Source: Gammaproteobacteria bacterium (GTDB lineage: Bacteria; Pseudomonadota; Gammaproteobacteria; Steroidobacterales; JBCCMA01). From it: a stretch of 64,000 nucleotides of DNA. Each line of letters begins with the position of its first letter. The first letter of the stretch is position 1. The position numbers and the translations under genes were made by a program. Below the pieces are notes generated by a model. The model searched no databases. It was not told where the DNA came from and saw only the letters and a list, made by a program, of their open reading frames with translations. The DNA is taken from positions 649 through 64,648 of the forward strand of contig JBGCEL010000037.1 in the NCBI GenBank assembly GCA_045106455.1, in the 5' to 3' direction. Below, in pieces: positions 3,339 to 26,330 of the stretch.

Positions 3339-4567
3339 TGTCAGTCGCCCGCCACCATTGGATTGCACTGGGTCTACCACTCGTATGCTCGGTGGCCGGT
3401 TGCGTTAGCACCGCGTCTCACAATAATCAGCAAGCCGGGTTGAACGCCGAAGCAGCCTATCAAGCCCGCTTTGAGACGGTCATGGCCAGTGGCGGTTTCT
3501 TCGCGACCTACCAACCGCGCGAAGAGATTCCCGGCGCGTCGAACACAGATCCTCTTCCATCCGCGGGTCCGGATGAGCGCTCTATTTCCGACGAAGCGTT
3601 GCATGAAGCAGCGACCTACGCTGAACGCAACAATTCCGACGCATTTATGGTGTGGCACGACGGCAAGCTTCAGGCGGAGCACTATTTTGGTGATACCCGC
3701 GCATCGACTCCGCTAATATCAAAATCACTCTCCAAACCGCTTACAGCCATCGCGGTTGGTCGAGCCATAGAACTCGGTCACATTCAATCTTTGGACCAGC
3801 CGGTCGCAGACTTTATCCTCGAGTGGCGAGATGATGACCGCCGAACTGTGTTGGTGAGACATCTGTTGGACATGCGATCTGGGTTTTTGCGCCAGGGCTA
3901 TAGCCGAGACCCCGATCATCCATGGAATCGGGCCTATTTGGCGTTAGAACTGGAAGACTATTTGGTCAATAGCTACCCGTTAGAGAGTACGCCGGGTAAG
4001 GACTATCTGTATAACAACGCCACCGCAGACATGGTGGCGGTGTTGATCGAACGTTCCACGGGGCAACGTTACGGCGAATTCATCGGGCGTGAGATTTTAT
4101 CTCAAATCGCTGCTCCCGGCGGGGAAGGGTGGGTCAGCAAACCCGGAGGCTTGATGCACTCAGGCTGCTGCAAGTTCCTGCCAGCTGAAAGCTGGCTGCG
4201 CATGGCCAGACTGCTGTTGGATGATGGCGTGTTTCGAGGTAAGCGTTTGCTACCGCACGGGTATGTGCACGAAATGACGACGCCATCCGCAGCCAATCCG
4301 CACTACGGTTTGGGCGTGTGGGTTGGCGGCGAATACGTAAAGCGGCGTGGCTATACCGGCAGACTAAAGCTCGGGCCACAAGTGTTACACAGTGAGCCCT
4401 ACTCGGACTCAACACTCTATTTGTTCGACGGCAATTCGAATCAGGTCGTTTATGTTTTGCCGCAATATAATCTGATCATACTGCGCCTGGGCCGTAGCCC
4501 ACCGAAAGAGCCTGAGTGGGATAACGCGAAGCTCCCGAATATGATTGTGCGTGGACTGAAACAATGA
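3335..4567 (+). CDS. beta-lactamase-fold serine hydrolase, predicted lipoprotein
   Basis: 410-aa ORF with lipobox-like SVAGC. SxxK motif S-L-S-K in LISKSLSKPLTAIAVG. Translationally coupled to the upstream gene. Confidence 0.8.
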   Translation: MMSVARHHWIALGLPLVCSVAGCVSTASHNNQQAGLNAEAAYQARFETVMASGGFFATYQPREEIPGASNTDPLPSAGPDERSISDEALHEAATYAERNNSDAFMVWHDGKLQAEHYFGDTRASTPLISKSLSKPLTAIAVGRAIELGHIQSLDQPVADFILEWRDDDRRTVLVRHLLDMRSGFLRQGYSRDPDHPWNRAYLALELEDYLVNSYPLESTPGKDYLYNNATADMVAVLIERSTGQRYGEFIGREILSQIAAPGGEGWVSKPGGLMHSGCCKFLPAESWLRMARLLLDDGVFRGKRLLPHGYVHEMTTPSAANPHYGLGVWVGGEYVKRRGYTGRLKLGPQVLHSEPYSDSTLYLFDGNSNQVVYVLPQYNLIILRLGRSPPKEPEWDNAKLPNMIVRGLKQ

Positions 4568-4596
4568 ACGTCCCGGGCGAACGACAGCGCTACCGG

Positions 4597-5646
4597 CTAG
4601 GGCTTAAAAGAGACCCGGAGATGCCCGCAGCTATTGTTGTCGTAGGCGTTGGCAACTTCTTCAAAAAACAACTGACCGGCTGCCGCGGTCTCGCGCGGAA
4701 GCTCAACATTTATGTAATGCCCGCCCTTGGGAAATGTAACCAAACGGGTGAAGCACGCGTTGCTCAATGCGTTCTTGAATGCCAAAGCGGTGGTCGTATC
4801 CAGCGCTTTGTTACCGCCACCCCAGATCACCAGAGATGGGGCTCTTACGTGTGAAAGTACTTGCGTTGGATTGCCGCGTTCGTAGAGCCTCAGAGACTTC
4901 TGGGCTTGCATGTCGCGCCCGACTACATTCAGGAAATCCAGCTTACGCTGCACAAATTCCCGGTCTCGGCGCACGGGGTCATTGATGTATGCACGATAGA
5001 ACTCATTTACATCTTCCTCAAAAACATTGGCGTCAACGAAAATGTTCTTCGCTTTGGGCGTATTTACGGACGGTGTTTTTTTTGCTTTGGCGGGTCGCTT
5101 GCCTGTCTGGATGCCGGCCGAATTCATCAAAACGAGTGCTGACACTCGATCGACTCGGGTTGCGGCGTAGCGAAACGCCACAATGCCACCATAAGAAATA
5201 CCGACAATCGCAAACGAGGGCTCATCCAAATGATCCATCAGTGCGTCGATGGTTGCGAGTGTCCGATCAATCGAATAGTTGTCGTTCGGAATGCCACTCG
5301 AAAGACCAAAACCGGGCAGGTCAAGACGAACGACGCGATAGTGATCGTCGAGGATTGCCGCCCACTCGTCCCAGTCGCGTACATCACCGAGCGTACCGTG
5401 AATCAGGAGTAACGTCGGTCCGTTTCCGCTTGCCTGATAGTGTAATTCGGTGCCCTCCAGATCAACAAATTGAGACGCTGCGGAACTATATGCTTCGCGG
5501 ATCTCGGGCAGTGAAATGGTGCGTGTTGTGGTTAAAGAAGATGTCGGGGCAAGATTTGGCTGGGTCTCGGACGAGCTTCTACACGCTCCTACGGAACCAA
5601 CAATCAGTAAACAGAGTAAGTAACTTGGTAGGTGACTTTCTTTCAT
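4597..5646 (-). CDS. alpha/beta hydrolase, predicted lipoprotein
   Basis: The track ORF runs to 5778, but the internal ATG (cat at 5644-5646) gives MKESHLPSYLLCLLIVGSVGAC, a signal plus lipobox. HG oxyanion motif LLLIHGTLG. Nucleophile elbow G-I-S-Y-G-G. C-terminal KGGH. Confidence 0.75.
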   Translation of the reverse strand: MKESHLPSYLLCLLIVGSVGACRSSSETQPNLAPTSSLTTTRTISLPEIREAYSSAASQFVDLEGTELHYQASGNGPTLLLIHGTLGDVRDWDEWAAILDDHYRVVRLDLPGFGLSSGIPNDNYSIDRTLATIDALMDHLDEPSFAIVGISYGGIVAFRYAATRVDRVSALVLMNSAGIQTGKRPAKAKKTPSVNTPKAKNIFVDANVFEEDVNEFYRAYINDPVRRDREFVQRKLDFLNVVGRDMQAQKSLRLYERGNPTQVLSHVRAPSLVIWGGGNKALDTTTALAFKNALSNACFTRLVTFPKGGHYINVELPRETAAAGQLFFEEVANAYDNNSCGHLRVSFKP

Positions 5647-5871
5647 GTGAAGAGGTTTCCTGCTTTCATTTTCCGACGCAACAGATGTTCGATTGAATGT
5701 CGATAAATATATACGTTTTCTGCGCACAACGCGTGGTTGGGAACAAAGAAAAATGAAAACGGTTTTCCGGCACTGCATTGGGATTCAGAATTCGAAAGAA
5801 CGCCAGAGACTCGCCTGGATCAGAAGCGCAATCTGTTTGGAAAAAATGGTGGTAACTATGGGAAAGCTGCA

Positions 5872-8217
5872 ATGAAAAAAAATGAAATTATTATGAAACG
5901 ATATCCGCTGGTACTTTTCTGTTGTACCGCAATCAGCATTGGCTGGACTGCAGGCGTGCTGGCACAAGAGTCGGCGTCTGAAGAGACATCGATAGAGGAA
6001 GTGATCGTCACCGCGCGTTTGGTTGAGGAAAGCCTCCAGGACGTGCCAATGTCGATCGCTGCGTTTGATGAGACGATGATCGATGAGCGTGGTTTGGAAG
6101 ATCTTACTGAGATTGCGCGTTCAACACCGGGTTTTGCTTTTGAGAATTTCAACGGCGCGTTTGCCACGCCGGTAATTCGGGGCCAATCGCAGAATCGACT
6201 GACCAATCCAGTGCAGAACGTCGCTACGTTCTATAACGGCATCTACCTGCAGCGTGGCTATATGGTCGATTCGAGTCTATTGAACGTGGGCCAGATAGAG
6301 GTGCTGCGCGGTCCGCAGGCAGCGGCATTTGGGCGCAACGCCTATGCTGGCGCGATCAATTTTCGGACCAAGACGGTTGGTGATCAGTTTGGGGGTGATG
6401 CGATCGTCGAGTTTGGTGAGGACGATTATCAGCGTATCGATTTGACTACTCAGATTCCTTTTGGTGAGCGCGGCGGCATGTCGCTTGGTTACAGCACTTC
6501 CGAATACGATGGTGCTTGGGAAAATAACCACGCATTGGCGAATGTCTCGGATCCGTTGGCGCGGACGACCGGCAACCTGGGCGGTTTCGATTCGGACGCG
6601 TTTCAAATTGGCTTCGATTTGAACATTACGGACGATCTGGCCGTGAAACTGAACCTGCTGGATACAGAGCGAGACGTCGAGAACGTTGCGCAGTACACGA
6701 TAAGTGGGTCGGGCTTGTTTGATGCCAATCCTCTCAATTGTTCTGGTGTTGGCGTATTTGGTGCGAATACACTCTTTTGCGGTGAGTTGCCGGTTGATCC
6801 CATACTGGTCGACGGCAACCCGCGCAAGCCAGGTCTTGTGGTTGATCCTCGTACCGGCGTAACCCTCGAATCTCAAGTTCTTAGTTTCGACGTGAACTAT
6901 GATATTTCGGAGTCAATGGGAATCAACTTTCTCTACGGCAAGATTGAAGGCGCCTTCGAGGGAGCGGGTTCGTCAGTTTACGATCAGGAAGTTGGCTACA
7001 CGGGGCCGTTTGCCACTGCCCCGATTTTCCTCGACCGTTTGTTGATCGATACCTCCGGCAACGGCAATATCGAATCGGACTCATATGAAATGCGTTTCAC
7101 GTGGAAAGGGGAAAATACTACGGCGTATTTGGGTGGCTACTATTCTGACGGTGATGATGCGACAGATTTTTCATTGCTAAGCGTGCCCGCACAAACGACC
7201 GGTCCGTTGGATCCTGGTTTCGAATTGAACTTCCCGGGTTTTGCAGCGAACTCTCTGGATTCGAGAAATATTAAATCCTTGTTCGGTTTCTGGGATTACC
7301 GTACCGGTAAGTGGGCTTACTCGGTTGAAGGCCGTCTGACGCGCGAGAGCATTATCGAGACAAACTTCGTTTCGGCCACCAGTGCCAAAGAGGAGTTCGA
7401 CTATTTCACCCCCCGTCTGGCGGCTACTTACTTCGTGTCAGACAATCGCAGCTACTACGGCTCGATTGCCGGGGGCGTAAAAGCAGGCGGTTTCAACGTT
7501 GGCGGTTCTGATCCATCGAGTTTCGATGATCCGGATCAGGCGAACTTTGATGAAGAAACCAACACGACGTTTGAATTTGGGAGCCGAAATATCCTGATGG
7601 ACGGTGCGCTGACACTGAATGCCACTTTCTATTACATTCAGGCGAAAGATCTGCAAGTCAGCGTACCTCGGTTAGGGCAAAACGGGACTGTCGTGGCCAA
7701 CCGGGCCGAGGCAGATACCGCTGGCTTGGAGGTTGAGCTGTCTTACGATGTCTCTGATTCCCTGCAACTGTACGGTGGACTGAGCTTTAACAATGCAGAG
7801 TATGGCGACGTAATCGACGTGTCGAATGCCGCCCGCTGTGACGATATCGTCTGTTCGTCAAGCGGGGACGTGTCCGGCAATGACATCGAGCGCGCACCCA
7901 AATTCATGTTGAACGCTGGCTTGAGCTATAACGGTTCCATTAATCCGACTATGGATTATTATCTGCGCGGCAACATCGGCTACCAGTCCAGTCAATACGT
8001 ATCGGCCATTAATGTGACCGAAATTGAGGCGCGCGCCATTACTGACGTATCTGCGGGTCTGTTTTGGAACAACTTCGAAGCCCGTTTGGCGGTCGATAAT
8101 CTGTTCGATGAAGAATATGTTTCGAGTGCGTTCCAGATTGGTTTTCTGAACGCATATACGCCCAACCTCGGCAATCGCCGCCGCGCCACCATGCGCCTCA
8201 GCTACAGTTTCGAATAG
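5872..8217 (+). CDS. TonB-dependent outer-membrane receptor
   Basis: ATG at 5872 gives signal peptide MKKNEIIMKRYPLVLFCCTAISIGWTAGVLAQE. TonB-box-like EEVIVTA. Plug-domain motif IEVLRGPQAAAFGRNAYAGAINF. Long Gly/Tyr/Asp-rich barrel region ending RLSYSFE. The upstream TTG-start extension (5737) is judged spurious. Confidence 0.9.
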   Translation: MKKNEIIMKRYPLVLFCCTAISIGWTAGVLAQESASEETSIEEVIVTARLVEESLQDVPMSIAAFDETMIDERGLEDLTEIARSTPGFAFENFNGAFATPVIRGQSQNRLTNPVQNVATFYNGIYLQRGYMVDSSLLNVGQIEVLRGPQAAAFGRNAYAGAINFRTKTVGDQFGGDAIVEFGEDDYQRIDLTTQIPFGERGGMSLGYSTSEYDGAWENNHALANVSDPLARTTGNLGGFDSDAFQIGFDLNITDDLAVKLNLLDTERDVENVAQYTISGSGLFDANPLNCSGVGVFGANTLFCGELPVDPILVDGNPRKPGLVVDPRTGVTLESQVLSFDVNYDISESMGINFLYGKIEGAFEGAGSSVYDQEVGYTGPFATAPIFLDRLLIDTSGNGNIESDSYEMRFTWKGENTTAYLGGYYSDGDDATDFSLLSVPAQTTGPLDPGFELNFPGFAANSLDSRNIKSLFGFWDYRTGKWAYSVEGRLTRESIIETNFVSATSAKEEFDYFTPRLAATYFVSDNRSYYGSIAGGVKAGGFNVGGSDPSSFDDPDQANFDEETNTTFEFGSRNILMDGALTLNATFYYIQAKDLQVSVPRLGQNGTVVANRAEADTAGLEVELSYDVSDSLQLYGGLSFNNAEYGDVIDVSNAARCDDIVCSSSGDVSGNDIERAPKFMLNAGLSYNGSINPTMDYYLRGNIGYQSSQYVSAINVTEIEARAITDVSAGLFWNNFEARLAVDNLFDEEYVSSAFQIGFLNAYTPNLGNRRRATMRLSYSFE

Positions 8218-8281
8218 GAATTAGGCTATCTCTGGATAGAGATTTCTGTCACGCAGGAACGTCTATCGCGGCACACGTGAT

Positions 8282-9787
8282 ATGAAGCTATCCAGAAGAC
8301 AGTTTAATGGGGGCTTGGCCGCTGCATCCGCAGCGGCCTTCTCAAGCATTGCCGGCTGTGCGGCCGAACAGCGATCTGATGTTGTGGTTGTAGGGGGTGG
8401 CATTGCGGGGCTCAATGCGGCATTGCTGCTGCGCGATTTAGGATTGACCGTCGTCGTACTGGAAGCGGGTACCGAGGTCGGCGGCCGGATCAAGACCGTC
8501 CAAACGAGCGCCGGGGCGATCGACGTCGGTGCGAGTCAGATCGGATTGGGCTATGCACGAGTAAGACAAGCTTGCCGCAAAGAGCAGCTAAAGCTGGTGC
8601 CCGAGAATCGCGATTTACTTCCGTTTGGTATGCACTTTCAGTCGAATTGGATAGAGCCGTCATCGTGGGCCGACAATCCACTCAATGCATGCGTTGGCGA
8701 AGAGCGCACAATCCCTCCTATGATGATGGCCAGAGCGCTGGTCCGTAAATACAACCCGCTAAACGATTTGGATGATTGGTTGAGTCCGAGCATGGCCAAA
8801 TGGGACATTAGTCTCAGAGAGCTGTTAGTACGCGAGGGTCATAGTCCCCAGGCTATTGAGTTGGCCGAGTGGACTGTGCCAGGCATAAGCCTTGACGAGA
8901 CGTCGATTCTACGAATGTTTCAGGAACAGACGCGTGGCGACTACGAGAGGGGTTTCGCGCAAGTGTATGGTGCGCATTCCGAACCATCATCATCTGCCAA
9001 CCCTCTTGGCGAGGAAAACGTGCGTTCCAGCGACGGTAGTCTCGCGACGATCTACAATATCGAAGGCGGTTGCCAGCAGTTGCCCCTTGCGCTAGCCAGG
9101 CGGTTAGGTGGGGCCGTGATACTGAATAAACGCGTTGTCGGCATCGAGATGACAGCACGGTCGGCAACCACAACATGCGCTGACGGTACTCGCTATACCG
9201 GGCGCTATCTTGTCTCTGCACTGCCATTTAGCGTGCTTCGACAGGTGAACATTAACGCTTCCCGCGATAGCCGTATGCGTGCATCAATCCAGAACATGCC
9301 GTACGCCAATACGATGAGATTGTATGTCGAAGTGGAGCGACCATTTTGGGAACAAGACGGTCTCCCGGCGTCATTCGCGACGGACAAGCGAATGGGCATG
9401 TTTTGGGCGATTGACAATCACGGTCTTGAGCAACCACAGCGGGCGATGTTTGTGCTGGTTGGTAAGGCAGGACAGCAGATATCCGCCATGCGGGATCCGG
9501 CAGAGTTCCTGATTGCTGAGCTGGAGAAATTGCGCCCGGCGTCGAGAGGGTTGATCAAGCCGTTGTTCTACAAGGACTGGGCCAAAGACCCCCTGCAGAT
9601 GGGGTGTGGCTTTAGCGTCGCGCCCGGTCAAATGAGCGACTATGTTCAGGACTTGGCACAACCCTGGCAGGTGATGCATTTTGCGGGTGAGCATACGCGG
9701 CGGCTGGATTTTGGCATGGAGTCCGCATTGGAAAGCAGCGAACGAGTCGCTCTTGAGATTATGCGACGTGAGAGCGCGGCAGGCTGA
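8282..9787 (+). CDS. FAD-dependent amine oxidase (flavin monoamine / L-amino-acid oxidase family), Tat signal
   Basis: 501-aa ORF. Twin-arginine signal MKLSRRQFNGGLAAASAAAFSSIAGC, which also contains a lipobox-like motif. Dinucleotide-binding motif VVVVGGGIAGLNAALLLRDLGLTVVVLEAGTEVGGR. C-terminal FAGEHT typical of the amino_oxidase family. Confidence 0.85.
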   Translation: MKLSRRQFNGGLAAASAAAFSSIAGCAAEQRSDVVVVGGGIAGLNAALLLRDLGLTVVVLEAGTEVGGRIKTVQTSAGAIDVGASQIGLGYARVRQACRKEQLKLVPENRDLLPFGMHFQSNWIEPSSWADNPLNACVGEERTIPPMMMARALVRKYNPLNDLDDWLSPSMAKWDISLRELLVREGHSPQAIELAEWTVPGISLDETSILRMFQEQTRGDYERGFAQVYGAHSEPSSSANPLGEENVRSSDGSLATIYNIEGGCQQLPLALARRLGGAVILNKRVVGIEMTARSATTTCADGTRYTGRYLVSALPFSVLRQVNINASRDSRMRASIQNMPYANTMRLYVEVERPFWEQDGLPASFATDKRMGMFWAIDNHGLEQPQRAMFVLVGKAGQQISAMRDPAEFLIAELEKLRPASRGLIKPLFYKDWAKDPLQMGCGFSVAPGQMSDYVQDLAQPWQVMHFAGEHTRRLDFGMESALESSERVALEIMRRESAAG

Positions 9788-9840
9788 TTTGCAGTAGCAA
9801 GGTTTTGTTCTAACTAGTACAAAGAGAGCAGCCATGGTCA

Positions 9841-10250
9841 TTCCCGACTACCCAGGTCCAGAGATCTTCCTAAAAATGCGGTTTCATGATTTCGATCTCA
9901 AGATTGCCCACAGCGTTGGGCATGATGTGATAACAACAAGGGTATCCTCTGCGATCTGCACCCACTCGTAAGTGGGATCATCACAACGCTTGCGTATGGG
10001 AATTAGACACGAGAGACGTGGAAAGCATAGCGACCGCGCCATCAGCGTCGTCTATGACTTGGTCATTGAAAGCTCCCGAAAAAATCGATAACGGAAGTCT
10101 GGAGAACAGTATCTTAGTCGGGAAGAACGCCGTTTATGGGGCGCTTACCCAGTCGTCGCTCCCGTATTGAGCGTAATAACCGCTGGGCGCAAATTCAAGC
10201 AGCCGGCACATCATCCGACCGCTTTGTTCTCCCTGTTTCGATTTGCCCAT
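9841..10250 (-). mobile_element. degenerate IS3-family transposase (orfB) fragment
   Basis: Minus-strand translation from 10250 gives MGKSKQGEQSGRMMCRLLEFAPSGYYAQ, matching the IS3 OrfB N-terminal HTH pattern (CRxLxVSRSGYYxW), then a stop. In shifted frames: VVITSCPT (compare DITYIPT, 9914-9934) and LDLGSRE (compare LDLFSRK at the start of the rve core, 9841-9861). There are several stops and frameshifts, and the rest of the DDE core is absent. Confidence 0.45.
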
Positions 10251-10284
10251 AAAAAAGGCCGCGCCTCCCAAAGGAGACGCGGCC
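10250..10284 (-). terminator. rho-independent terminator of the giant adhesin gene
   Basis: GC-rich hairpin ggccgcgcctcc (10257-10268), loop caaa, ggagacgcggcc (10273-10284), with one mismatch. On the minus strand it is followed by TTTTTT (10251-10256). It lies 22 nt after the stop codon at 10306-10308. Confidence 0.75.
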
Positions 10285-10305
10285 TTACCTTAGATCAACG
10301 ACTGA

Positions 10306-13300
10306 TTAGTCGCAGTGCAACTGCACGTTGATGTCGCCGTTGCCGCTGTGGGCAATGCAATCACCGTAGTAGTGGCAATCGTGCGGCTGACCGGACGTCT
10401 GCCAGTCAAACCAACCCGAACCACCGTAGATGTGCTGTTCGCCATCATGCGCGTTGGCACCGGTTCCAATCTGGAATGAGGCACCGCGACGAGTGATAGA
10501 CACATGCGCACCGGTATTCCAGTCAGCACCGGTCAACGAGCCTTCCCAGTTCGGGTAGTACTGCCAATCCGCAGGATCGGCACCGTACGGATTGTACGGG
10601 CTACCCGGAGGAGGGTTGTCGGTGCGACCGGACATGGTCACGTTGATATCGAACGCGTAGCTCGGCTCATGCTGCTTGCGAATCCGACCCGACAGTACGG
10701 CGTTGCCGTTACCGTCTTGCACGAAGGTCGCGCCTGGGTCGAGGTCGTACAGGTCCAGTACACCGTCAGAGTTGAAGTTCGGCAGGTAGAACGCATGTTT
10801 GTGCGTTTCATCCGCTTCACAGCTCTGTGGTGCATGGGGATCGACAGGCTCGCATTTTTTCTCAATGCGTACGTTGTCCACCATGAACTTGTCCCAGACG
10901 GCACCGAAGTTGTGCGAGATCTGGAATGAGATCACCGTTTGATCCGAGATAAACGCCGAGATGTCATACATCTCAGAGCTGCCATTCTCCTGACCGTGCA
11001 CACCCGTGAAGGTGTCCAGCAGATGCCAGTTATGGCCACCATCGGACGAGATCCACAAAGACGCCGTATCGTGGCCGTTCGCTTCAAGCGAGATCGACCA
11101 ATCAAACGACAGCATGGCAGCATTGTGACCCGTCAGATTTACCTCACGGCGAATTTCAGGATGGGTGCCGCTGTTTGGATAGTCGGACATGACCAGCATG
11201 TCGTTCTCAATCCGCACCACGCCACCGTGCGCGCCGCCACCCGAAGGATCGTGCTCGTCCCAGTCGCCACTCCAGTTCATCGAACCGTCGTTGTTGCCGT
11301 AAGACACATGCGAGAAGTGGTCGGCCACGTCACCTGGGGTGCAGGCTTCACACTTCTTGTCGATACGCACGTTGTCCACCATGAACTTGTCCCAGCTGCC
11401 GCCAAACTTGTTGGCGATGCGGAATCGGATCTCGGTGTGTGCGTCGATGAATTGCGAGATGTCGAACATCGCCGCGCCACCGTTGCCGTTCTGGCTGTTG
11501 CCCTCGTAGCGTGCCAACTCCGTCCAGCCCGTCGTGCTGTTACGCACTTCAATGACGGCCTGATCGCTGTGATCCGCTTCATGGGAAATCGACCAGTCAA
11601 ACATGAGCATCGCAGCGTTGAAGCCGGTCAGATCCACTTTACGGCGGATCGACGGATCGGTGCCGCTGTTGGGGTAGTCCGCCATGACCAGCATGCCGTT
11701 CTCAATCCGGACCGAACCGCTCTGGGCGCCGCCGCCCTGCGAGTCATGTTCGTCCCAGTTTGAAGACCAGTTCATGTCGCCATCGTTGTTGCCGTAGGAC
11801 ACCTGATCAAAGTTGTCCGCAACAAACTTGTCGACGCAAGCGGCTGGCTCACCAAAGTAGTGACTTGGATCATCAGCATCGACCGGATCGCCCACAGGCT
11901 CTCCACCGTCAACCGGCTGACCCGTCACACTACCGAGGTTGGCGTACTGTCCGGCCGTGGCCGTACCGCTGCCCGTGCAGGTAAACGACGCGCCCGGAGC
12001 GAGCGAATCGGCAGGGCAGGAGACCGCCACACCCTGATCGTCGGTGACCACAACATCGTTAAGCGTCAGCTCGCCGGTGTTGGTGACAACGTACGTCCAG
12101 TTCACCGCATCGCCCACGATAATGGTCGGTCCGGTTGGCGTGTCGGCATCTTCGCCGTTGGTGGCTTTCTCGATGTCGATGGAGGCGTTCAACATGATCA
12201 CACCAGCGTCGATGGTCGGGTTGAATTCACCCGAAGCCAGCGTTACTGGAGCGGTGATGCCCGTATTCACATCGGGGTTCGAATCCACGGTCGTGTCGCC
12301 ACCAGCAGTCTGCGTGGTGAACGGCTTGCCCGGAATGGCTTCGAACTGAACGATGTAAATGGTCAACGCGTTCAGGTTGTTGAACATGTACATGCCGTTG
12401 GCATCGGTGGTGGTCGTCGCAATTTGGGTGTCGGGGGTACCGTCACCGTCGTTGTCCGTCCACAAATTCACCACAGCACCCGGCACACCCGGCTCGCCAG
12501 CATCCTGGATGCCGTCACGATCCTGGTCAATCCAGACGAAGTCGCCCAGTTTGGCCGGCAGGTTCACAAGACCCGCATCGATGGTGGGGTTGTTTTCACC
12601 CGAAGCGAGGTTGATCGGACCGGTGATACCACCGGCGCCTGCATCGCTGTCGCTGGCATCATCACCCACGTTCGGCGTCGTGAACGGCATGTTCATGGCC
12701 GGATCGTTGATGAACTGCACCACGTAGGTCAGGGCAGGGTCCAGGTTGGTGAAACCGTACATGCCGTTGGCATCGGTCATCGTGGAGTTGATCTGGGTGT
12801 CGGGCGAACCGTCACCGTTATCGTCCGTCCACAGATTCACCGTGATACCGCCAACACCTGGCTCACCAGCGTCTTGCTGACCGTCAGCGTCAAGGTCTTT
12901 AAAGACTTTGTCGCCAAGGCTCGCCAACTGATTCACAAGGCCCGCATCGATGGTCGAATTATTCTCACCAGAGGCAAGCGTAATCGGACCGGTGATGCCA
13001 CTGGCACCTGCGTCACTGTCGGTAGCATCGTCGCCAACGTTCGGCGTGGTGAACGGCATGTTCATCGCCGGATCGTTCACAAACTGCACAACGTAGGTCA
13101 GCGTCGGATCAAGATCCGAGAAGCCGTACATGCCGTTGCCGTCGGTGGTGGTCGTGGCGATCTGAGTGTCGGGGGTACCGTCACCGTCATCGTCCGTCCA
13201 CAGGTTCACGGTGATACCCGCAATGCCAGGCTCGTCCGCATCCTGCTGACCGTCAGCGTCGAGGTCTTTGAAGACCTTGTCGCCAAGCGAAGCAGGGAGA

Positions 13301-16300
13301 TTTACCAAACCAGCATCGATGGTCGGATTGTTCTCACCAGAGGCAAGCGTAATCGGACCGGTGATGCCACCGTCGCCGGCGTCGCTGTCGGTCGCGTCGT
13401 CGCCAACGTTCGGCGTGGTGAACGGCATGTTCATGGCCGGATCGTTCACAAACTGCACCACGTAGGTGAGGGTGGGATCCAGGTTCGAGAAGCCGTACAT
13501 ACCGTTGCCGTCGGTCGTGGTCGTGTTGATTTGAGTGTCGGGGGTACCGTCACCGTCATCGTCCGTCCACAGGTTCACGGTGATACCGGGAACACCTGGC
13601 TCATCGGCGTCTTGCTGACCGTCCGCGTCGAGATCTTTAAAGACCTTGTCGCCGAGGCTCGCCGTCTGATTGACGAGGCCTGCATCGATGGTCGGATTGT
13701 TCTCGCCAGAGGCAAGGTTAATCGGACCGGTGATGCCACTGGCACCTGCGTCACTGTCGGTCGCGTCGTCGCCAACGTTGGGCTGCGTGAACGGCATGTT
13801 CATCGCCGGATCGTTCACAAACTGCACAACGTAGGTCAGCGTCGGATCGAGATCCGAGAAGCCGTACATGCCGTTGCCGTCAGTGGTGGTCGTGGCGATT
13901 TGGGTGTCAGGCGTACCGTCACCGTCATCGTCCGTCCACAGGTTCACAACGATACCTGGCACGCCAGGCTCATCCGCATCCTGCTGGCCGTCAGCGTCGA
14001 GATCTTTAAAGACCTTGTCGCCAAGCGAAGCAGGGAGATTTACCAAACCAGCATCAATCGTTGGGTTGTTCTCGCCAGAGGCAAGCGTAATCGGACCCGT
14101 GATGCCACCGTCGCCCGCGTCGCTGTCCGTGGCGTCGTCGCCAACGTTCGGCGTGGTGAACGGCATGTTCATCGCCGGATCGTTCACAAACTGCACCACG
14201 TAGGTAAGCGTTGGATCAAGATCCGAAAACGCGTACATACCATTGCCGTCGGTGGTGGTCGTGGCGATTTGCGTGTCGGGGCTACCGTCACCATCGTCAT
14301 CGGTCCACAGGTTCACGGTGATACCGGGAACACCAGGCTCGTCGGCATCTTGCTGACCGTCTGCGTCGAGGTCTTTAAAGACCTTATCGCCGAGACTCGC
14401 ACCCACGTTCACAAGGCCCGCATCAATCGTCGGATTGTTCTCACCGGAGGCAAGGTTAATCGGACCGGTGATGCCACCGTCGCCGGCGTCGCTGTCGGTC
14501 GCGTCGTCGCCAACGTTTGGCGTGGTGAACGGCATGTTCATCGCCGGATCATTCACAAACTGCACAACGTAGGTCAGCGTCGGATCAAGATCCGTAAAGC
14601 CGTACATACCGTTGCCGTCAGTGATGGTCGTATCAATTTGGGTGTCGGGCGTGCCGTCACCGTCGTCGTCGGTCCACAGATTCACCGTGATACCGGGGAC
14701 ACCCGGCTCGTTGGCATCCTGTTGGCCATCGCCATTGAGGTCTTTAAAGACCTTGTCGCCAAGCGAGGCGGGCAGGTTCACGATACCGGCGTCAATGGTC
14801 GGATCGTTTTCACCTGGATCAAGATCGATCGGACCGGTGATGCCATCGTCGCCCGCGTCGCTGTCGCTGGCATCGTTGCCAACGTTCGGCGTCGTGAACG
14901 GCATGTTCATCGCAGGGTCGTTCACGAACTGCACGACGTAGGTCAGGGCAGGGTCCAGATCGGTGAAGGCATACATGCCGTCGCCGTCGGTCGTGGTGGT
15001 GCCGATTTGGGTGTCGGGGCTGCCGTCACCGTTGTCGTCGGTCCACAGGTTCACAACGATACCTGGCACGCCAGGCTCATCCGCATCCTGCTGGCCGTCA
15101 GCGTCGAGGTCTTTAAAGACCTTGTCGCCAAGGCTTGCACGCGCTTGAGGTTCGCCAATGTAGTGCGACGGATCGTCGTCACCAACAGGATCGCCAATAG
15201 GATCGCCCGCGGGATTTACGCCCTGGCCGGTGACGGTGCCGAGGTTGGCATACTGACCAACTTCTGCGCTGCCGCTGCCCGTGCAGGTGAACGTCGCGCC
15301 CGGTGCGAGTGTGTCGCTTGGGCAAGAGACCGTGACGCCCTGATCGTCGGTGACAACCAGATCGACCAGCGTGATGTTACCGGTGTTGGTCACCACGTAA
15401 GTCCAGTTGACGTCGTCGCCTTCGGTCAGCGTAGGACCGGTAGGCGTATCGGCATCTTCACCGTTGGTGGCTTTTTCGATGTCCACTGAAGGATCGGCGC
15501 CAAAGTAATGGCTTGGATCGGCATCGGTGACAGGATCGCCAACCGGATTGCCGTCGCCGTCTACACCTTGGCCAACGACGGAAGAATCATTGGCGTACTG
15601 ACCTGCTGTCGCCGTGCCCGTTGCCGTGCATGTAAACGAAGCACCAGGCGCAAGCGTCGTAGCTGGGCAAGACACCGTGATGCTGTCATCGCTGTCGGAC
15701 ACAACAATGTCGTTGAGCGTCGTTGAACCGGTGTTGGTGACCACGTAGGTCCACGTCACCGTGCCGCCGACAGGCACAAATGGCCCTGTTGGCAGATCCG
15801 CATCGGCGCCATTGGTGGCTTTTTCGATGTCGATGCCAGAAGACGTGCCGAAGTAATGGGAAGGATCGGTCGCCGTGACCGGATCGCCAACAGGTGGCGT
15901 GCCAGAGACCGAACCGAGGTTCGCGTATTGGCCAGCGATCGCCGTACCCGAGCCCGTGCAAGTCATCGAGACACCTGGATCCAGCGTCATGCTGGGGCAG
16001 GTGACCGTGACGCCCTGATCGTCTGTCACGAACACATCGGTCAACGTAACGTTACCCGTGTTCACGACAAAGTAGGTCCAGTTGACCGTGCTACCAGCGG
16101 GTACTTCAGGACCCGTAGGCGTATCGGCATCTTCGCCGTTGGTCGCTTTTTCCAAAGAAATTCCGGGGGCAGAACCGAAGTAGTGGCTCAAGTCTTTGTC
16201 GCAACGCAGACCACCGTCGGGAGAACCCGCGGCGCCACAGGCATACACTTCGTTCATGTACTGACCGGCCTGTGCATCGTTGCTGCTACCGGTACAGGTG

Positions 16301-17697
16301 ATGGTCTCGCCTTCGGCAAGATTTTCCTGCGGGCAGGTAATGCTCACGCCCTGATCGTCAACGACGCGCAGGTCAAACAAGTCGCCAGAGCCTGTGTTGG
16401 TGAGGATGTATTCCCACAACACGTCGCCGCCCACCTCAATGAACGGGCCCGGTGCGTTATCGGCATCAAAACCGTTGGTGAGTTTCTCAGCATCGATGCG
16501 CGGGATGCCGTCATTGCGTGCCGCGACATCGATGTCGACGCGTTGTCCGCCGGACACCACGTCAAACGCGGGCGTCACGCCCAGTCCGTTCGCATCGCTG
16601 TCGAGTTCTGAATCCGGGCTCACACCGGCCTGGCCAAAAAAGTAGCCATCGGGCAGTGCGAACTGCAGACGATAGCGACCGGGCGCCACGTCTTGAAATT
16701 CGTAGTAACCGTCGTTGTCACTGACTTCTGAGCGACCCGTTGGGGTAGAGGCGGCATCTAGCAACACCACCTGAACGCCGGGAAGGCCACGCTCACTGAC
16801 ACCCTGAATGTGATCGCCGTCGGCGTCCACCCAGATCCAGTCACCAATGCTGCCGTTGCGATAAACGCCGGCGTCGATGCCAAACAAACCCTGATCTGGG
16901 CCAATCATGCCGGCTTGCGCCATGCCCGTCAGAGGGTCAACGTCGCTGTCAAAGTCATCCACCGTGCGATCTGCAGCGCTGAAGGCGTAGCCGTTCGGCA
17001 GAATGACTTTTACGGCATAGCAAGCCGGAGCAATATCTTCGAAGACGAAGAAACCGCTGTCATTCGTGCGCGTGTTGCGCGCGCGACCGGCGTCGTCGAC
17101 GATCGCTTCACCACTGCATGAATGCAGCGAAACTTTTACTTTGTGAAGACCTGGTTCGCCGACATCCTGAATGCCGTTTGCGTTAACGTCTTCCCAAACA
17201 CGGTCGCCAATTTGCGACTCGTCGAGCGCCACGATGCCAGCATCGAGCTGGGAGGCGCCTTGATTGAGTCCAAGCTCGATAGCGCCCGTGAGCCCTGTCG
17301 AGGGATCAGCGTTACTGTCGCGCGTGACATCATTACCGAGGTTGGCGGGGCAGTAGCGAAAGCCGTCCATCGCTGCGTAACGCAGTCGATAGCAGCCGGC
17401 GGCCAGCCCATTAAATTTGAATTGCCCCTTGGCGTCCGTGGCTTGTGCCCGAACGAAATTCCCGGCGCAATCGAGCAGGCTGACGGTAACGCCAGGCATA
17501 CCCACTTCACTTTTGTCGCGAATCGCATCGCGATTCGTGTCCAGCCACACCATGCTTTCGATGTACCCACCGTTAGCTAGCGGGCTTTGCCCGGGACCAT
17601 TGGCAATTGCCACCGGCCCGGCGCTGAACGCCACAAAAGACAGACATAAGAAAACCGCTGCGGCCATCCGGCCCACAGCGCGACGTGTTGTGCTCAT
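10306..17697 (-). CDS. giant secreted adhesin-like protein with SdrD-B-like and DUF11-like Ig-fold repeats
   Basis: One uninterrupted ORF. The track starts at GTG 17706; ATG at 17695-17697 with GGAGG 8 nt upstream is preferred. Signal peptide [31 protein letters not shown]. Three SdrD-B-like domains (e.g. [21 protein letters not shown]). Four DUF11-like units ([37 protein letters not shown].CP). Eight tandem 123-aa SdrD-B-like units, then a fifth DUF11-like unit, two ~165-aa unassigned domains and a 181-aa unassigned C-terminus. Family names come from motif memory and are not HMM-verified. Confidence 0.9.
   Translation of the reverse strand: [2463 protein letters not shown]
12187..15138 (-). 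repeat. 8 x 369-bp in-frame tandem repeat array (123-aa SdrD-B-like units)
   Basis: Unit consensus: [118 protein letters not shown]... Seven near-identical copies span 12556-15138 and one diverged copy spans 12187-12555. Boundaries were fixed on codons A857 (15136-15138) and N1840 (12187-12189). Confidence 0.95.
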
Positions 17698-18092
17698 AAG
17701 CACCACCTCCGGTTTATGATGTCAGACTGTGCTCTTGGAAAAGCTTATTTCGTCCGACGTTTATCGTTATAGCTCGTGGTGCATTGTTTCTTGGCAATGC
17801 AGGGCACACGGTACGTTAAAACGGCGAGCAAGGCCATGTAAGGCATACACTGAGTTTGTAAAGCAATGTGAAATGAGATTACGAACTTTTTCGTTCTGGG
17901 CCTCACATAATTCACTAAGTGCCACAAAAAAACGGAAAATTTTCGTGTTGCATAGCGTCAGGCTGTGATTTTTTGCTTATAATCTGATCACCGCAGCGGG
18001 CTCCCAATTGCAGCACGCCTGTTGCGGTCGCAGGTTTTCAAGAAAGATCGGCGTACCAAAACAACTAGAACGAAAAAAAGCAGACAATCAAC

Positions 18093-19670
18093 ATGCTCGA
18101 CTGGAAAAGCATCGGACGCGCCATTCGCTTTGAAAAGCAGACGCTGGCCGCGGTCACACTCGCCATTTTATTGCTCGGGGCGTACGCCATCATGAGCCTG
18201 CCTAATATGTATGTGAGCAGCGCTCAAATACTAGTAGAGCGTCGTGGCTTGTTTTCTGAAACCGAAATGACCGCCACCGCGCAGGACAATCTGAGCCGTC
18301 GCATGCATGCGATCACAAGCACGGTGCTCAGCTCGGACAGCATTCGCACCATATTAATCGACAACGACCTGGTAACTGAATCCATCAGTGACGAGGATTT
18401 TGCGCTCGCGGTGGATTCCTTTCGCGAGGATGTCGTGCTTGAACTCGACAACGTTGCGGTGGTGAATCAGTTCACCGGCAAATCAGGCATGTACTCGCAG
18501 GGCATGATCATCGAATTCGCACACACCGATCCGGATGTCGCATTTGCGATTTCTCGTGCGCTCACTGATCGGGTGCTGGCAGCGAACAAAGGCAAGGGCG
18601 AGGCAGCCGTTGAATACCGACGTGAATTTTTGAGCGAGCAGCGCGAACGCGCCTTTGAGAAGCTCAGTGTCGCCAAGGGCGCGGTGGCGGAATTCAAAAA
18701 TGAAAATGCGCTGTTTGTGCCCGAAGTGCATCCACTGACCATTCGACGATACGAAGAGATTGAATCGCAAACCTCACGTATCGATGAAAATCTTGCTCGC
18801 CTGCGTCGCGACCTCAGTGACGTGCGTGGGGCGTTGGCCACCACCAGCGCCGACGCGTTCGTATTGGCCGCCGACGGTACGCGTATTCTGGGTACGGACG
18901 AACAGCTTAGACTCCTGGAAGCTGAGTACGCCCGCGCCAAAGCACGTTACACCGACAACCACCCGGAGCTCGTGAAGCTGCGCTCCGAGCTTGAGGGCCT
19001 GCGTCGCTATTCCAACGGTGGTGATCGCACGGGTATTCAGGCCGATTTGCAAACCGCACGTCGCGAGCTTGCCGGCGCCCGGCAACGCTATGGCGCCGAG
19101 CACCCAGATGTACGCTCGCTGACACGCAAAGTAGGCCAGCTTGAAAGCCTGCTCGCCAGCGCCAGCACGAGTTCACCACGACGCACGACCAGTGAATCTT
19201 CGAACCCGGCTTATAACCGACTGCTGATCCGCGAGCGCGGCATTGTCGACAACATTGCACGCGAAGGCCAAAAACAGCGATCACTCGGCGAAGAGCTGGC
19301 CACCATTAAAGATCAGCTTGCCAGAATGCCCGCCGTGGAACAGTCGCTGGCAACGTTGCTGCAGCGTCAGGATGCAGCGACCGCAACGTATGAAGAAATT
19401 GAATCAGAGCTAGAGCAAGTGAGTCTGAGCGTTGGCATGCGCCAGGCAGACCTGTTGGATCGATTTGTGCTGATTGAGCCACCGCGCAAGGCGTTTGCTC
19501 CGGCCAAACCGCCCAAGAAGCTGCTTCTTGCGCTGCTTGGCATGCTGTCTGTATGTGCTGGTCTTTTGGCCGCCATTTTGCTGCACACGTTCCGTGATCG
19601 AATTATCGACAGCGACGATGTTGAAGACATGCTCGATCTGCCCGTTTACATCATTCCTCGATTTGGATAG
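18093..19670 (+). CDS. polysaccharide co-polymerase (Wzz / chain-length determinant family)
   Basis: 525 aa. N-terminal TM plus Wzz-type motif (LAAVTLAILLLGAYAIMSLPNMYVSSAQILVE). Long coiled-coil-like Ala/Arg/Glu/Leu-rich periplasmic region. Second TM near the C-terminus (LLLALLGMLSVCAGLLAAILL). Confidence 0.85.
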   Translation: MLDWKSIGRAIRFEKQTLAAVTLAILLLGAYAIMSLPNMYVSSAQILVERRGLFSETEMTATAQDNLSRRMHAITSTVLSSDSIRTILIDNDLVTESISDEDFALAVDSFREDVVLELDNVAVVNQFTGKSGMYSQGMIIEFAHTDPDVAFAISRALTDRVLAANKGKGEAAVEYRREFLSEQRERAFEKLSVAKGAVAEFKNENALFVPEVHPLTIRRYEEIESQTSRIDENLARLRRDLSDVRGALATTSADAFVLAADGTRILGTDEQLRLLEAEYARAKARYTDNHPELVKLRSELEGLRRYSNGGDRTGIQADLQTARRELAGARQRYGAEHPDVRSLTRKVGQLESLLASASTSSPRRTTSESSNPAYNRLLIRERGIVDNIAREGQKQRSLGEELATIKDQLARMPAVEQSLATLLQRQDAATATYEEIESELEQVSLSVGMRQADLLDRFVLIEPPRKAFAPAKPPKKLLLALLGMLSVCAGLLAAILLHTFRDRIIDSDDVEDMLDLPVYIIPRFG

Positions 19671-24091: not shown

Positions 24092-25404
24092 GTTCGGACA
24101 AGCAGCACAGCGTTGGCGCCATTGCGCGCGGCTCAATCGTGCTGGTTGCCGCGCGCGTACTTGGCATGCTTTGTGGCCTGATGTTGATGATCTTTCTGGC
24201 GCGAACGCTCACGCCGGATCAACTGGGTGTGGTGACGTTGTGCTTCTCGACGGCGCTTCTCGGCGGACTCGTATTCACCCTGAATGTGGGAGCCGGTGCC
24301 GTGCGCTTTATCAACACCTATCTGGGACTTGGCGAACGCGGCCGAGCGGGCAGCTATCTGGTGTACAGCGAAAAGCTGGTGCTGAAGGTCTCGCTGGCTG
24401 TTTTGCTGTTGCTCGGTGCGAGTGTGGCACTGGGCCGAGCGACGTTCGTGCCGACGCTCCCGGTCGCGATAGCGAGCGGCTTGCTGGTGGCGCCGATGTT
24501 TGCCTGGTTGCGCGTTGAGGCGGCAAACGTTGCGGCGGCCGGTGCCGTAGTGCGTGCATCGCTACCGGCAACACTTTTTCGTCCCGCGCTCATGCTTATC
24601 ACGGTGATGTCGGTCTATCTGGCCACCGATCGAATGACCAGTACGCGGGTACTGGTGCTCTACGGCGTGTCTCTGCTGATCGTGGTCGCCCTGCAACATT
24701 TTTTGTTTCGAAGCCTGGTAACACCTTTGCGCCATGAGGCCGCGGCCATTGCGGATGCAGACCGCCGGTCCTGGCGGCAGGTGGGCGTCGACTTACTCAT
24801 TCCAACGCTGTTTCTTGAGCTGTCTGTCGACATCATCGTGATTATCGCGGCGCTGGTACTGCCGACGTCCGATATCGCCGCATTGGGCATCGTATTGCGC
24901 ATACAGGGCATGATCTTGTTTGGCGTCACGTCCATCAACATGATCGTCTCACCGAAAATTGCGGCGGCGCACAGCGATGGCGACCGGCGTAGCGTGAATC
25001 ATCTGTTGTTTGTGGCCGCGCACTTGAAACTGTGGCCGGCTATCGGCGCGTTCATCATGATGGCCGTTCTGGGTCAGTGGGTGTTGGGGTTCTTCGGGCC
25101 GGAATACCGCGAGCATTTGCTGCCGCTACTTATTTTGTGCGGCACGCCAATACTGATGGCGCTGATTGGCCCGGTGGTGTTGTTTGTGACCGTGCTCGGC
25201 TTGGAGAAGCAGGCACGGCGCGTATTTCAAGTGTCGATCGGGCTTCTGCTGGTGCTCATCGTGGTGCTTGGCAAGCTGTTCGGCCTAAGCGGCGTGGCGA
25301 CGGGCGTGATGATTGTCTGGTGCGTGTGGCAGGGTGCGCTGCACGTCATTGTTCGGCGCAGCAGTGGTTACTCCACCATTCGACTGACGCCGGCGGCGGA
25401 CTAG
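24088..25404 (+). CDS. polysaccharide flippase (Wzx / MOP superfamily)
   Basis: 438 aa. ATGA overlap with the upstream gene (24088-24091). Highly hydrophobic polytopic protein with N-terminal GSIVLVAARVLGMLCGLMLMIFLARTLTPDQLG, typical of polysaccharide-biosynthesis flippases. Confidence 0.75.
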   Translation: MSSDKQHSVGAIARGSIVLVAARVLGMLCGLMLMIFLARTLTPDQLGVVTLCFSTALLGGLVFTLNVGAGAVRFINTYLGLGERGRAGSYLVYSEKLVLKVSLAVLLLLGASVALGRATFVPTLPVAIASGLLVAPMFAWLRVEAANVAAAGAVVRASLPATLFRPALMLITVMSVYLATDRMTSTRVLVLYGVSLLIVVALQHFLFRSLVTPLRHEAAAIADADRRSWRQVGVDLLIPTLFLELSVDIIVIIAALVLPTSDIAALGIVLRIQGMILFGVTSINMIVSPKIAAAHSDGDRRSVNHLLFVAAHLKLWPAIGAFIMMAVLGQWVLGFFGPEYREHLLPLLILCGTPILMALIGPVVLFVTVLGLEKQARRVFQVSIGLLLVLIVVLGKLFGLSGVATGVMIVWCVWQGALHVIVRRSSGYSTIRLTPAAD

Positions 25405-26330
25405 GTCTGACGCCAGACGTCAAGCTCTCGCCCAAGCAGTGACTCAACGTAGGCCACGTCGTCACGATACACCTCGTCAAAGCGTGCACGCGTTGTAGCG
25501 TCCATACCCACTCTCTTGCCCGTGTTCATCGCCTCAATCATGGCGCGCACTTTGCGCCGTGGCTTCTTCGGCACGACCATGCCAATAAGCTTCTTAAATA
25601 GCTTGCCGCCCTGTAGAAAACTCTGCAACGCCTCGCTGCGCGGCATGCCGCTCACGTTGACGCGTCGTTCAACGTCTACCGACACCTCATCACTGAGGCC
25701 GAGAAACTCGAACAGCCGTGAAAGTTGGCCACGTCGGTCTGCCTTAAACTCTTCGTAAATCATTAAGTGCACATTGGCCGGGTCAAACGTCGACAGCCAC
25801 ACTGGTAGATGTCGACCATACTTCGGCAACGACAGATGATCGCAAAATGGATAGAGGTCCTGTGCTGCGTAGCGACTCTCATCGAAAACGCGGTCGATCT
25901 GACCGAGCCGCAAAGACTCTGCGCGATCGCGCACCAAATGCACAAAATTTGCGAAGGCGACGTCCGCCGGGTCGCGCAGGATAATCACAATCTTTGTATT
26001 TGGCCGATGCGCCAGGATACGCGCGGGCACCTCACTGTTGATGAGATACCACGGCGAGGCCTCGCCACGAATCGCGCCCTGCGGTGCGTTGGTGAACAGA
26101 TTGGCGTATTTATCATGCGTATCGACAATATCGCTTTCATCCTGGCCCTCAAGAACGCGTTCGCCACGCAAGCCAATGAAGTGGCGTGTGGATTCATAGC
26201 CATGGATAAAGAAGTTGGTCTCTTTAATTGGGCTCATGAACACATCGGGGTGTTGGTCCAGCATGAAGTGCAGGGCCGTTGTGCCCGATTTGGCGGAACC
26301 GGCGATGATAAATTCGGGGGCAGGGGACAC
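25401..26330 (-). CDS. PAPS-dependent sulfotransferase
   Basis: 309 aa. GTG start at 26328-26330 with GAGGA 6 nt upstream. 5-prime PSB loop IIAGSAKSGTTAL and 3-prime PB motif VIILRDPADVAFANFVH. Convergent with the flippase; both stop codons share the palindrome CTAG at 25401-25404. Confidence 0.85.
   Translation of the reverse strand: MSPAPEFIIAGSAKSGTTALHFMLDQHPDVFMSPIKETNFFIHGYESTRHFIGLRGERVLEGQDESDIVDTHDKYANLFTNAPQGAIRGEASPWYLINSEVPARILAHRPNTKIVIILRDPADVAFANFVHLVRDRAESLRLGQIDRVFDESRYAAQDLYPFCDHLSLPKYGRHLPVWLSTFDPANVHLMIYEEFKADRRGQLSRLFEFLGLSDEVSVDVERRVNVSGMPRSEALQSFLQGGKLFKKLIGMVVPKKPRRKVRAMIEAMNTGKRVGMDATTRARFDEVYRDDVAYVESLLGRELDVWRQT

Follow-up and report, generated by a model that had tools for sequence, protein, structure and literature searches.

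A giant anchorless SdrD_B/CLIPPER_2 stalk protein encoded head-to-head with an exopolysaccharide operon in an uncultured gammaproteobacterium

We analyzed a 64,000-nucleotide stretch of the metagenome-assembled genome of a marine-type gammaproteobacterium (MAG; assembly GCA_045106455.1, contig JBGCEL010000037.1), hereafter the window, and focus here on one 7.4-kb gene (10306..17697, minus strand) that is divergent from an exopolysaccharide (EPS) operon. The product of this gene is very probably a secreted, Ca2+-stiffened fibrillar adhesin or matrix protein. The fuller proposal, in which this protein would in addition pass through a type II secretion system (T2SS) and bind EPS, is one on which we are evenly divided. 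Taken whole, the protein is another anchorless adhesin of giant size and of the SdrD_B/DUF11 type, found in a bacterium that is uncultured; this is useful for annotation and unsurprising. Its conserved head-to-head arrangement with a GumC/XrtA-like operon for a putatively sulfated EPS makes it a testable candidate for fastening polysaccharide to cells, a process of which little is understood except in Vibrio and in Zoogloea-type flocs.

The gene, its signal peptide and its stalk

The gene lies in a single unbroken minus-strand open reading frame (ORF; 10306..17706) and comprises 2,463 codons plus the stop codon, with an ATG at 17697. A GGAGG Shine-Dalgarno motif (17706..17710, minus strand) is located 8 nt 5' of this ATG and is kept in the orthologue L002, which comes from an independent MAG and has the same architecture. 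Because an upstream GTG abuts the GGAGG motif and the ATG lies 8 nt past it, we take the product to be a protein of 2,463 amino acids; the NCBI record MFK7886530.1, labelled 'SdrD B-like domain-containing protein' and a singleton cluster at 90% identity, has the same start. A hairpin resembling an intrinsic terminator, with 10 GC pairs in its 14-bp stem and a T run behind it, is found 20 nt past the stop codon (10255..10286, minus strand). On the 5' side, a divergent intergenic region of 395 bp (17698..18092) with a GC content of 44.8%, versus 55.8% across the whole window, separates the gene from the first gene of the EPS operon, which encodes a GumC-family chain-length protein (18093..19670, plus strand; NCBIfam). 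The initial annotation of this DNA, made from the letters alone, had described one gene of about 2460 codons with its own Shine-Dalgarno motif, ATG, terminator and Sec signal, divergent from an EPS operon with which it shares a 395-bp low-GC control region, and each of these elements was found in place.

The Sec (signal peptidase I) signal peptide (amino acids 1–32; 17602..17697, minus strand), read directly from the sequence, consists of a basic n-region and a 15-amino acid h-region followed by the cleavage site GPVAIA↓NG; L002 (ASA↓G) and the paralogue L003 (LNA↓G) have AxA-type sites as well. Export by the Tat pathway was considered and rejected, since the TRRAVG motif is not kept in L003 and the many putative disulfides speak against Tat. 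In a motif scan, the signal peptide was the sole hydrophobic segment of the protein, and the mature N-terminus leads straight into an SdrD_B domain. The protein is strongly acidic (383 Asp and Glu residues versus 83 Lys and Arg residues).

A Pfam scan of the 2,463-amino acid protein returned 11 SdrD_B (PF17210) stretches (895.8 bits, cutoff 29.7) and five DUF7507 (PF24346) stretches (192.9 bits, cutoff 27), and the order of the domains was set with hidden Markov models (HMMs) built from the protein's own repeats. All of the following features are on the minus strand. The stalk opens with three SdrD_B (CnaB-type) domains that have diverged and contain DxNxD-type loops as well as paired Cys (amino acids 50–392; 16522..17550). 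These are followed by four DUF7507/CLIPPER_2 domains (amino acids 401–849; 15151..16497), eight tandem SdrD_B units (amino acids 855–1837; 12187..15135, also found by Tandem Repeats Finder) and a fifth DUF7507/CLIPPER_2 domain (amino acids 1840–1950; 11848..12180), all four features being supported by both Pfam and our own HMMs. Behind this stalk come 2 copies of a domain of about 165 amino acids, X1 (amino acids 1953–2117; 11347..11841) and X2 (amino acids 2118–2283; 10849..11346), and a 180-amino acid all-beta domain that we call CT (amino acids 2284–2463; 10309..10848). This is the order that the initial annotation had read from the translation. The number and positions of its DUF11-like units (four plus one) hold as well, with the difference that the family is now DUF7507/CLIPPER_2, DUF11 itself reaching only 35.7 bits. 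No other ORF in the window carries SdrB, DUF7507, X or CT domains.

Tandem Repeats Finder described the array as a repeat with a period of 369 bp, 7.4 copies and 82% DNA matches, far above chance. Units 1–7 have 123 amino acids each and are 82–97% identical as protein, and the eighth unit is diverged (51–57% protein identity). All 13 DxDxDG loops of the protein are inside the array, with 2 loops in most of the units. The repeat-number comparison that the initial annotation had proposed was carried out: L002 (2,589 amino acids) has 9 tandem units versus 8 in the window gene, and therefore the copy number of the unit varies.

Cysteines occur in pairs, 13 residues apart in each DUF7507 unit and one at each end of X1 (Cys1954 and Cys2116), X2 (Cys2119 and Cys2282) and CT (Cys2293 and Cys2462). 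This pattern is as expected of a protein that is oxidised outside the cytoplasm, and the paired residues would form disulfide bonds. A second type of cross-link is predicted for the DUF7507 domain, a family that was created and then renamed CLIPPER_2 in a 2025 survey, in which an intramolecular Lys-Asp-Asn isopeptide bond was predicted (PMC12617251). We aligned the 32 DUF7507 units of four proteins, namely the window protein and three relatives. The Lys is conserved in 28 of the 32 units, and the Asp and the Asn in all 32, with a spacing of +42/+80 versus +40/+80 in the reference, which matches the residues predicted for the family. The DUF7507 units are thus predicted to form Lys-Asp-Asn isopeptide bonds.

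Read by eye, the CnaB triad is incomplete in the tandem SdrD_B units: where its Glu would be, they have YVVQF. In staphylococcal SdrD, the B repeats are stabilised by Ca2+ binding. Because the triad Glu is absent and DxDxDG loops are present, the SdrD_B units here are likely stabilised by Ca2+ and not by an isopeptide bond, by analogy with SdrD. Like S. aureus SdrC, SdrD and SdrE, which belong to the MSCRAMM (microbial surface components recognizing adhesive matrix molecules) group, the window protein uses the Ca2+-binding B repeat (SdrD_B) as a rigid spacer. Unlike them, it is found in a Gram-negative host, has the opposite polarity, carrying its head at the C-terminus, and is devoid of the A region, the Ser-Asp repeats and the LPXTG motif. 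Membership of the Sdr group was rejected because these last three elements are missing and because the NCBIfam scores are far under the cutoffs (SdrD 478.9 versus 2500, SdrC 440.3 versus 1700) and are partial matches that cover the B-repeat region only.

Judged by its domains, the protein fits the broad known class of fibrillar adhesins with CLIPPER/SdrD_B stalks, and the label 'adhesin-like' in the initial annotation named the right class. Fibrillar adhesins are defined by a stalk of repeats, an adhesive domain and a surface anchor. Like the adhesins of this type (PMC12617251), it has a signal peptide, a long tandem stalk of CnaA-like and CnaB-like domains (16 Ig-like domains), a terminal putative binding region, for which X provides a predicted lectin/MAM-type fold, and the isopeptide triad. 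It differs from them in having no recognisable sorting or anchor domain, in its head of a MAM-like pair plus CT, and in its pairing with an EPS operon.

The C-terminal head: a jelly-roll pair and the CT domain

An AlphaFold2 model of the X domain X2, built from 23 homologous segments, had a predicted local distance difference test (pLDDT) score of 94.2, and a Foldseek search with this model gave 239 matches in the PDB at E<=1e-3. The top matches were the ligand-binding domains of EphA2 and EphA7, LAST-MAM (8a28), the meprin MAM domain and subrepeat B of reelin, together with CBM4, a porphyran-binding carbohydrate-binding module (CBM) and the K1–K3 'cleaved adhesin' domains of the gingipain Kgp (E from 2e-6 to 3e-5, probability 1.00, TM score of about 0.5), with 10–17% sequence identity to the solved structures. 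On the strength of the matches to MAM, ephrin ligand-binding, CBM4 and gingipain domains, X is, as modelled, a galactose-binding-like jelly-roll of the MAM/CBM type. Its sequence scores under the Pfam cutoff: the InhA-like MAM family PF20773 gave 18.5 and 20.1 bits for the single X domains and a borderline 26.6 bits for the whole protein, just below the gathering cutoff of 26.9. The initial annotation had listed 2 copies of an unassigned domain of about 165 amino acids; the 2 copies stand, and with a pLDDT of 94 and a best E of about 2e-6 the fold can now be assigned. X also occurs right after the signal peptide in a conserved family of hypothetical proteins of about 626 amino acids from marine Flavobacteriia (P0023, P0026 and P0030 from Flagellimonas/Allomuricauda), the remainder of which has no Pfam domain on record.

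CT is the only unusual part of the protein. It had been listed as an unassigned C-terminus of 181 amino acids, and at 180 amino acids it has no Pfam or NCBIfam match even at E=1–10; it can now be placed in a large uncurated family. The AlphaFold2 model of CT (pLDDT 93.5) is all-beta with 12 strands. Foldseek found nothing significant for it in the PDB, the best matches being scattered small beta-barrels (E of 0.039, TM score <0.4), and there was no significant structural match in BFVD and no match between the CT sequence profile and the PDB sequences. A profile-profile comparison showed no relation between CT and X, and homology of the two was rejected. The floc protein PepA (NF033554) was rejected as well, because only one CT relative, P0209, gave a sub-threshold partial match (49.8 versus 80 bits) and the window CT gave none.

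When a profile of 17 CT sequences was searched against 1.84 billion representative proteins, 1,996 proteins (about 2,000 clusters at 50% identity) were found at E<=1e-3, 1,302 of them at E<=1e-10. Most of these relatives have 2 to 9 tandem copies of CT straight after the signal peptide, sometimes with SdrD_B domains, and some also carry lectin-type domains (F5/8-type-C, Laminin_G_3 or Golvesin_C). In the relatives tested, no Pfam or NCBIfam model covers CT, and a six-copy protein scores zero families. CT is duplicated in L003, in a second paralogue (L004), in P0004 and in P0005, is present in four copies in P0007 and P0008, and is internal in P0003, where it stands between two X domains. Since CT is tandem or internal in these relatives, it acts as a functional module and not as a sorting tag, and from its distribution we conclude that it is a repeatable extracellular module of a large uncurated family rather than a terminal sorting signal. 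Its conserved positions are chiefly Gly and aromatic residues plus Q126 and a GDxN motif, a pattern that we read as pointing to a binding or structural module and not to an enzyme.

Small proteins of about 220 to 280 amino acids were also found in the family, in which a signal peptide is followed by a single CT and then by a PEP-CTERM or VPDSG-CTERM tag; their genomic context was uninformative. We can therefore picture CT, speculatively and with the balance of probability against it, as an undescribed fold or family that would act as a general module by which Gram-negative matrices tether EPS. Its delivery would be either by covalent sorting of the exosortase type, in proteins made of a signal peptide, CT and a PEP-CTERM or VPDSG-CTERM tag, or at the tips of giant anchorless stalks, where binding of CT to EPS would replace a membrane anchor; we hold this delivery scheme to be just as doubtful. 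If this were true, CT would offer a molecular handle on the attachment of EPS to cells by PEP-CTERM-type proteins. Irrespective of its role, the CT family has real novelty potential, given the libraries searched, and deserves a family model, being large, confidently folded, without structural match, and present both in giant stalks and in exosortase-sorted proteins.

Export, retention and competing explanations

Scans with Pfam, NCBIfam and sequence motifs revealed no membrane, lipid or cell-wall anchor in the protein after signal cleavage. The motif scan found no LPXTG, RTX nonapeptide (GGxGxD) or PEP motif. No autotransporter, two-partner secretion (TPS), type IX secretion system (T9SS) C-terminal-domain or sorting-domain family was matched in Pfam or NCBIfam, and CT is a polar domain, flanked by a Cys pair, that can recur in tandem. 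There was likewise no match to the PEP-CTERM models TIGR02595 or PF07589, and neither a hydrophobic segment nor a basic tail at the C-terminus, which ends in ...GDINVQLHCD within a folded domain. The initial annotation had already seen no LPXTG, PEP-CTERM, autotransporter barrel, RTX or type I secretion system (T1SS) signal, and this was borne out. By its own account, it would have been contradicted had domain searches placed the protein in a known, characterised adhesin family whose secretion route is defined; the searches did not do so, and the route remains an inferred one.

We propose that Sec would export the protein, that signal peptidase I would cleave it after AIA32, and that it would fold in the periplasm, where disulfides would staple its domains. 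It would then cross the outer membrane, most likely by the general T2SS. We arrive at this route because the protein has a Sec signal and no feature of the T1SS, type V secretion system (T5SS), T9SS or exosortase pathways, and because no dedicated transporter is encoded beside the gene or its paralogues; the AIA↓N end of the signal and the paired Cys throughout the protein fit the cleavable signal and the periplasmic folding of T2SS substrates, which carry no linear T2SS signal that a scan could detect. Outside the cell, the 11 SdrD_B domains would bind Ca2+ by DxDxDG loops and the five CLIPPER_2 domains would be locked by isopeptide bonds, as the chemistry of these families predicts. Together, the 16 stalk domains would make up a stiff rod that resists proteases and probably measures tens of nanometres in length. 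The distal C-terminal head, formed by the two jelly-rolls and CT, would bind a glycan, most probably the putatively sulfated EPS of the divergent operon. The protein would thus be held non-covalently in the matrix and would cross-link polymer, cells and surfaces, in the way that RbmA, RbmC and Bap1 do with the Vibrio polysaccharide (VPS).

RbmA, RbmC and Bap1 of V. cholerae are anchorless proteins with a Sec signal that are encoded beside the vps genes and bind polysaccharide in a lectin-type manner. All three are reportedly secreted by the T2SS, as Johnson et al. are said to have found in 2014 (in J Bacteriol). RbmA is described as binding VPS directly (PMC5605196). The window protein shares with these proteins the Sec signal, the lack of an anchor and the position beside EPS genes. 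The resemblance is functional and not one of homology, as the Vibrio proteins have unrelated domains (FnIII, beta-propeller, beta-prism), are much smaller and have no long stalk. A second point of comparison are the PEP-CTERM matrix proteins such as PepA of Aquincola/Zoogloea, which are also secreted and tied to Gram-negative EPS loci; in Aquincola, PepA moves EPS from the soluble to the cell-bound fraction (PMC9850573). CT is the sole cargo of some PEP-CTERM-type proteins, and the EPS locus of the window encodes both an XrtA-like GumC protein and a protein with a VPLPA-CTERM-like tail. In contrast to these matrix proteins, the big protein is untagged and its CT reaches no PepA or PEP-CTERM family model.

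The following observations weigh against the proposal that the protein passes through the T2SS and binds EPS. No T1SS, T2SS, T5SS or exosortase genes are present within the 64-kb window, and the outer-membrane step is reached purely by exclusion. X is as close to protein-binding jelly-rolls (ephrin ligand-binding domain, MAM) as it is to carbohydrate-binding modules, and CT is without functional precedent. Finally, the paralogues L003 and L004 lie amid housekeeping genes, with no transporter nearby and no adjoining EPS genes, which indicates that linkage to EPS genes is not a property of the whole family.

The protein could instead sit on the cell surface as a fibrillar adhesin that binds a foreign substrate, for instance glycans or proteins of algae or of a host, with its C-terminal head pointing outward. 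It would be retained there by an unrecognised non-covalent anchor, such as an outer-membrane partner or the diverged trio of SdrD_B domains at the N-terminus. We regard this as the strongest alternative, possible although on the whole doubtful. The architecture of stalk and distal head, the resemblance of X to both CBMs and protein-binding MAM/ephrin domains, and the paralogues unlinked to EPS genes all fit it, and fibrillar adhesins that bind to hosts typically have CLIPPER-type stalks (PMC12617251). However, no anchor was detectable after signal cleavage, the mature N-terminus goes directly into SdrD_B, and the conserved pairing with the EPS operon would be left unexplained. It is unlikely that the protein stays in the periplasm as a Ca2+-buffering or envelope protein, or is freed only by vesicles or lysis. 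In favour of this reading, the Sec signal is the only export feature and no outer-membrane translocation feature was detectable, but a 16-domain rod with lectin-like heads is ill-suited to the periplasm, all domain families of the protein are extracellular (PMC12617251), and CT relatives bear tags for sorting by exosortase, a mark of surface or matrix proteins.

Less likely still is that the protein is a scaffold that recruits Ca2+-binding, TSP3/dockerin-like tails of neighbouring proteins in the manner of cohesin and dockerin, with X or CT as the receptor. Three otherwise different secreted proteins of the window share the C-terminal tail DLNGDGxVNxVDLGxLRxxFF: a P-domain protein (34713–37727, plus strand), an FG-GAP protein (41686–43023, plus strand) and a 1,877-amino acid TSP3-repeat protein with CglD/MtsD-like matches (57066–62699, minus strand). 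The tail matches TSP_3. A matching C-terminal region (61.5% identity over 78 amino acids to the window tail, with a weak TSP_3 match, E of 0.046) is found on a protein of the endonuclease/exonuclease/phosphatase family whose gene lies just downstream of the orthologue (13205–14596 in L002, minus strand). On the other hand, the Dockerin_1 matches are sub-threshold (19–20.6 versus 22.9 bits), Pfam found no cohesin family in the big protein, and the co-occurrence is seen in two loci only. The tail itself could be a shared docking or Ca2+-binding module.

An artefact of MAG assembly is very improbable as the explanation of the repeat count or of the gene as such. A Logan short-read contig of the same locus (SRR29999185; L005 1–2595) does stop about 10 residues into the first array unit, at amino acid 865. 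However, the units are only 77–91% identical as DNA and the longest exact stretch that they have in common is 68 bp, which makes an artefact unlikely. In addition, the frame is open for 7.4 kb, the independent L002 has the same architecture, and a further locus (L001) matches the 3' part of the gene. Codon differences among the repeat units comprise 780 synonymous and 288 non-synonymous changes, and this synonymous excess together with the DNA divergence indicates that the array is old and under purifying selection. In public short-read assemblies, truncation is to be expected as the usual fate of this gene family.

Finally, a substrate of a dedicated pathway (T1SS RTX, T5SS/TPS, T9SS or exosortase) with a missed signal is a reading that is largely refuted: the Ca2+-stiffened stalk with C-terminal ligand modules recalls LapA/MpIBP-type adhesins and the XrtA-like EPS locus encodes the VPLPA-CTERM-like-tail protein, but a cleavable Sec signal is present, RTX repeats, a C-terminal transmembrane helix, a basic tail, and barrel, TPS or T9SS families are all absent, and no transporter genes adjoin the gene or its paralogues. 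The likeness to T1SS RTX adhesins (LapA, MpIBP, FrhA, SiiE) consists of a giant acidic, Ca2+-rigidified stalk with ligand modules near the C-terminus. Those adhesins lack a Sec signal; their RTX repeats, the T1SS signal at their C-terminus, their retention module at the N-terminus and the adjacent genes for an ABC (ATP-binding cassette) transporter, a membrane fusion protein (MFP) and TolC all have no counterpart here. Placement of the protein among the RTX adhesins, autotransporters or PEP-CTERM proteins was rejected, as no matching feature was found.

The exopolysaccharide locus, the intergenic region and the relatives

The GumC-family protein that heads the divergent operon has no Pfam match whatsoever. 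Its best NCBIfam model is TIGR03007, the chain-length determinant of XrtA/PEP-CTERM systems, at a score under the cutoff (160.9 versus 278.85 bits). The cluster further encodes a BY-kinase-like ATPase, Wzy, GT2, GT4 and GT1 proteins, a Wzx-like protein, a priming undecaprenyl-phosphate glucose phosphotransferase, a P-domain protein and a deacetylase. It also includes a sulfotransferase (25401–26330, minus strand) and a 1,146-amino acid secreted protein with two GH16 domains (26395–29835, minus strand), which together hint at a sulfated galactan-like or glucan-like polymer with its own trimming glycanase. A 198-amino acid protein (37976–38572, plus strand), hypothetical in NCBI, has a signal peptide and a VPLPA-CTERM-like tail, ...VPVGAALPLLISAMGTLGFMRRRRNG, that scores 20.9 versus 25.35 bits. 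Because of this tail, an exosortase-type system is probably present in the organism, and such a sorting system may serve the EPS locus, without the big protein being its substrate.

In L002, the head-to-head pairing of the adhesin gene with the EPS operon is kept (identities of 83% for GumC, 82% for the kinase and 79% for Wzy), and the 3' neighbours of the window gene, an amine oxidase and a TonB-dependent receptor, are not. Within the intergenic region, a palindrome, GCATTG-N8-CAATGC (17781–17800), and several other blocks are also kept in L002, and these conserved blocks are candidate operator sites common to the adhesin gene and the EPS operon. An Rfam scan of this region found no family, for instance no cyclic di-GMP riboswitch, and no sigma-70-like or consensus promoter match was seen in it. 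A sigma-54 promoter was rejected: a TGGCAC hexamer is present but the -12 TTGC element is not, and L002 has a 33-bp deletion just downstream of TGGCAC and shows little conservation at this site.

A metagenome scan with the N-terminal 400 amino acids returned distant SdrD_B proteins only (<=39% identity), none of them with a GumC neighbour. Synteny between the window gene and L003 on the 3' side was rejected, as the neighbours of 501 and 823 amino acids match by length only (a Usp protein and a P-type ATPase). L003 comes from the same MAG as L002 and encodes a protein of 3,658 amino acids (1091–12067, plus strand). This paralogue begins with 3 SdrB and 6 DUF7507 domains, continues with a super-repeat of one SdrD_B and two DUF7507 domains, present in four full copies and two shorter units, and ends with 2 X and 2 CT domains.

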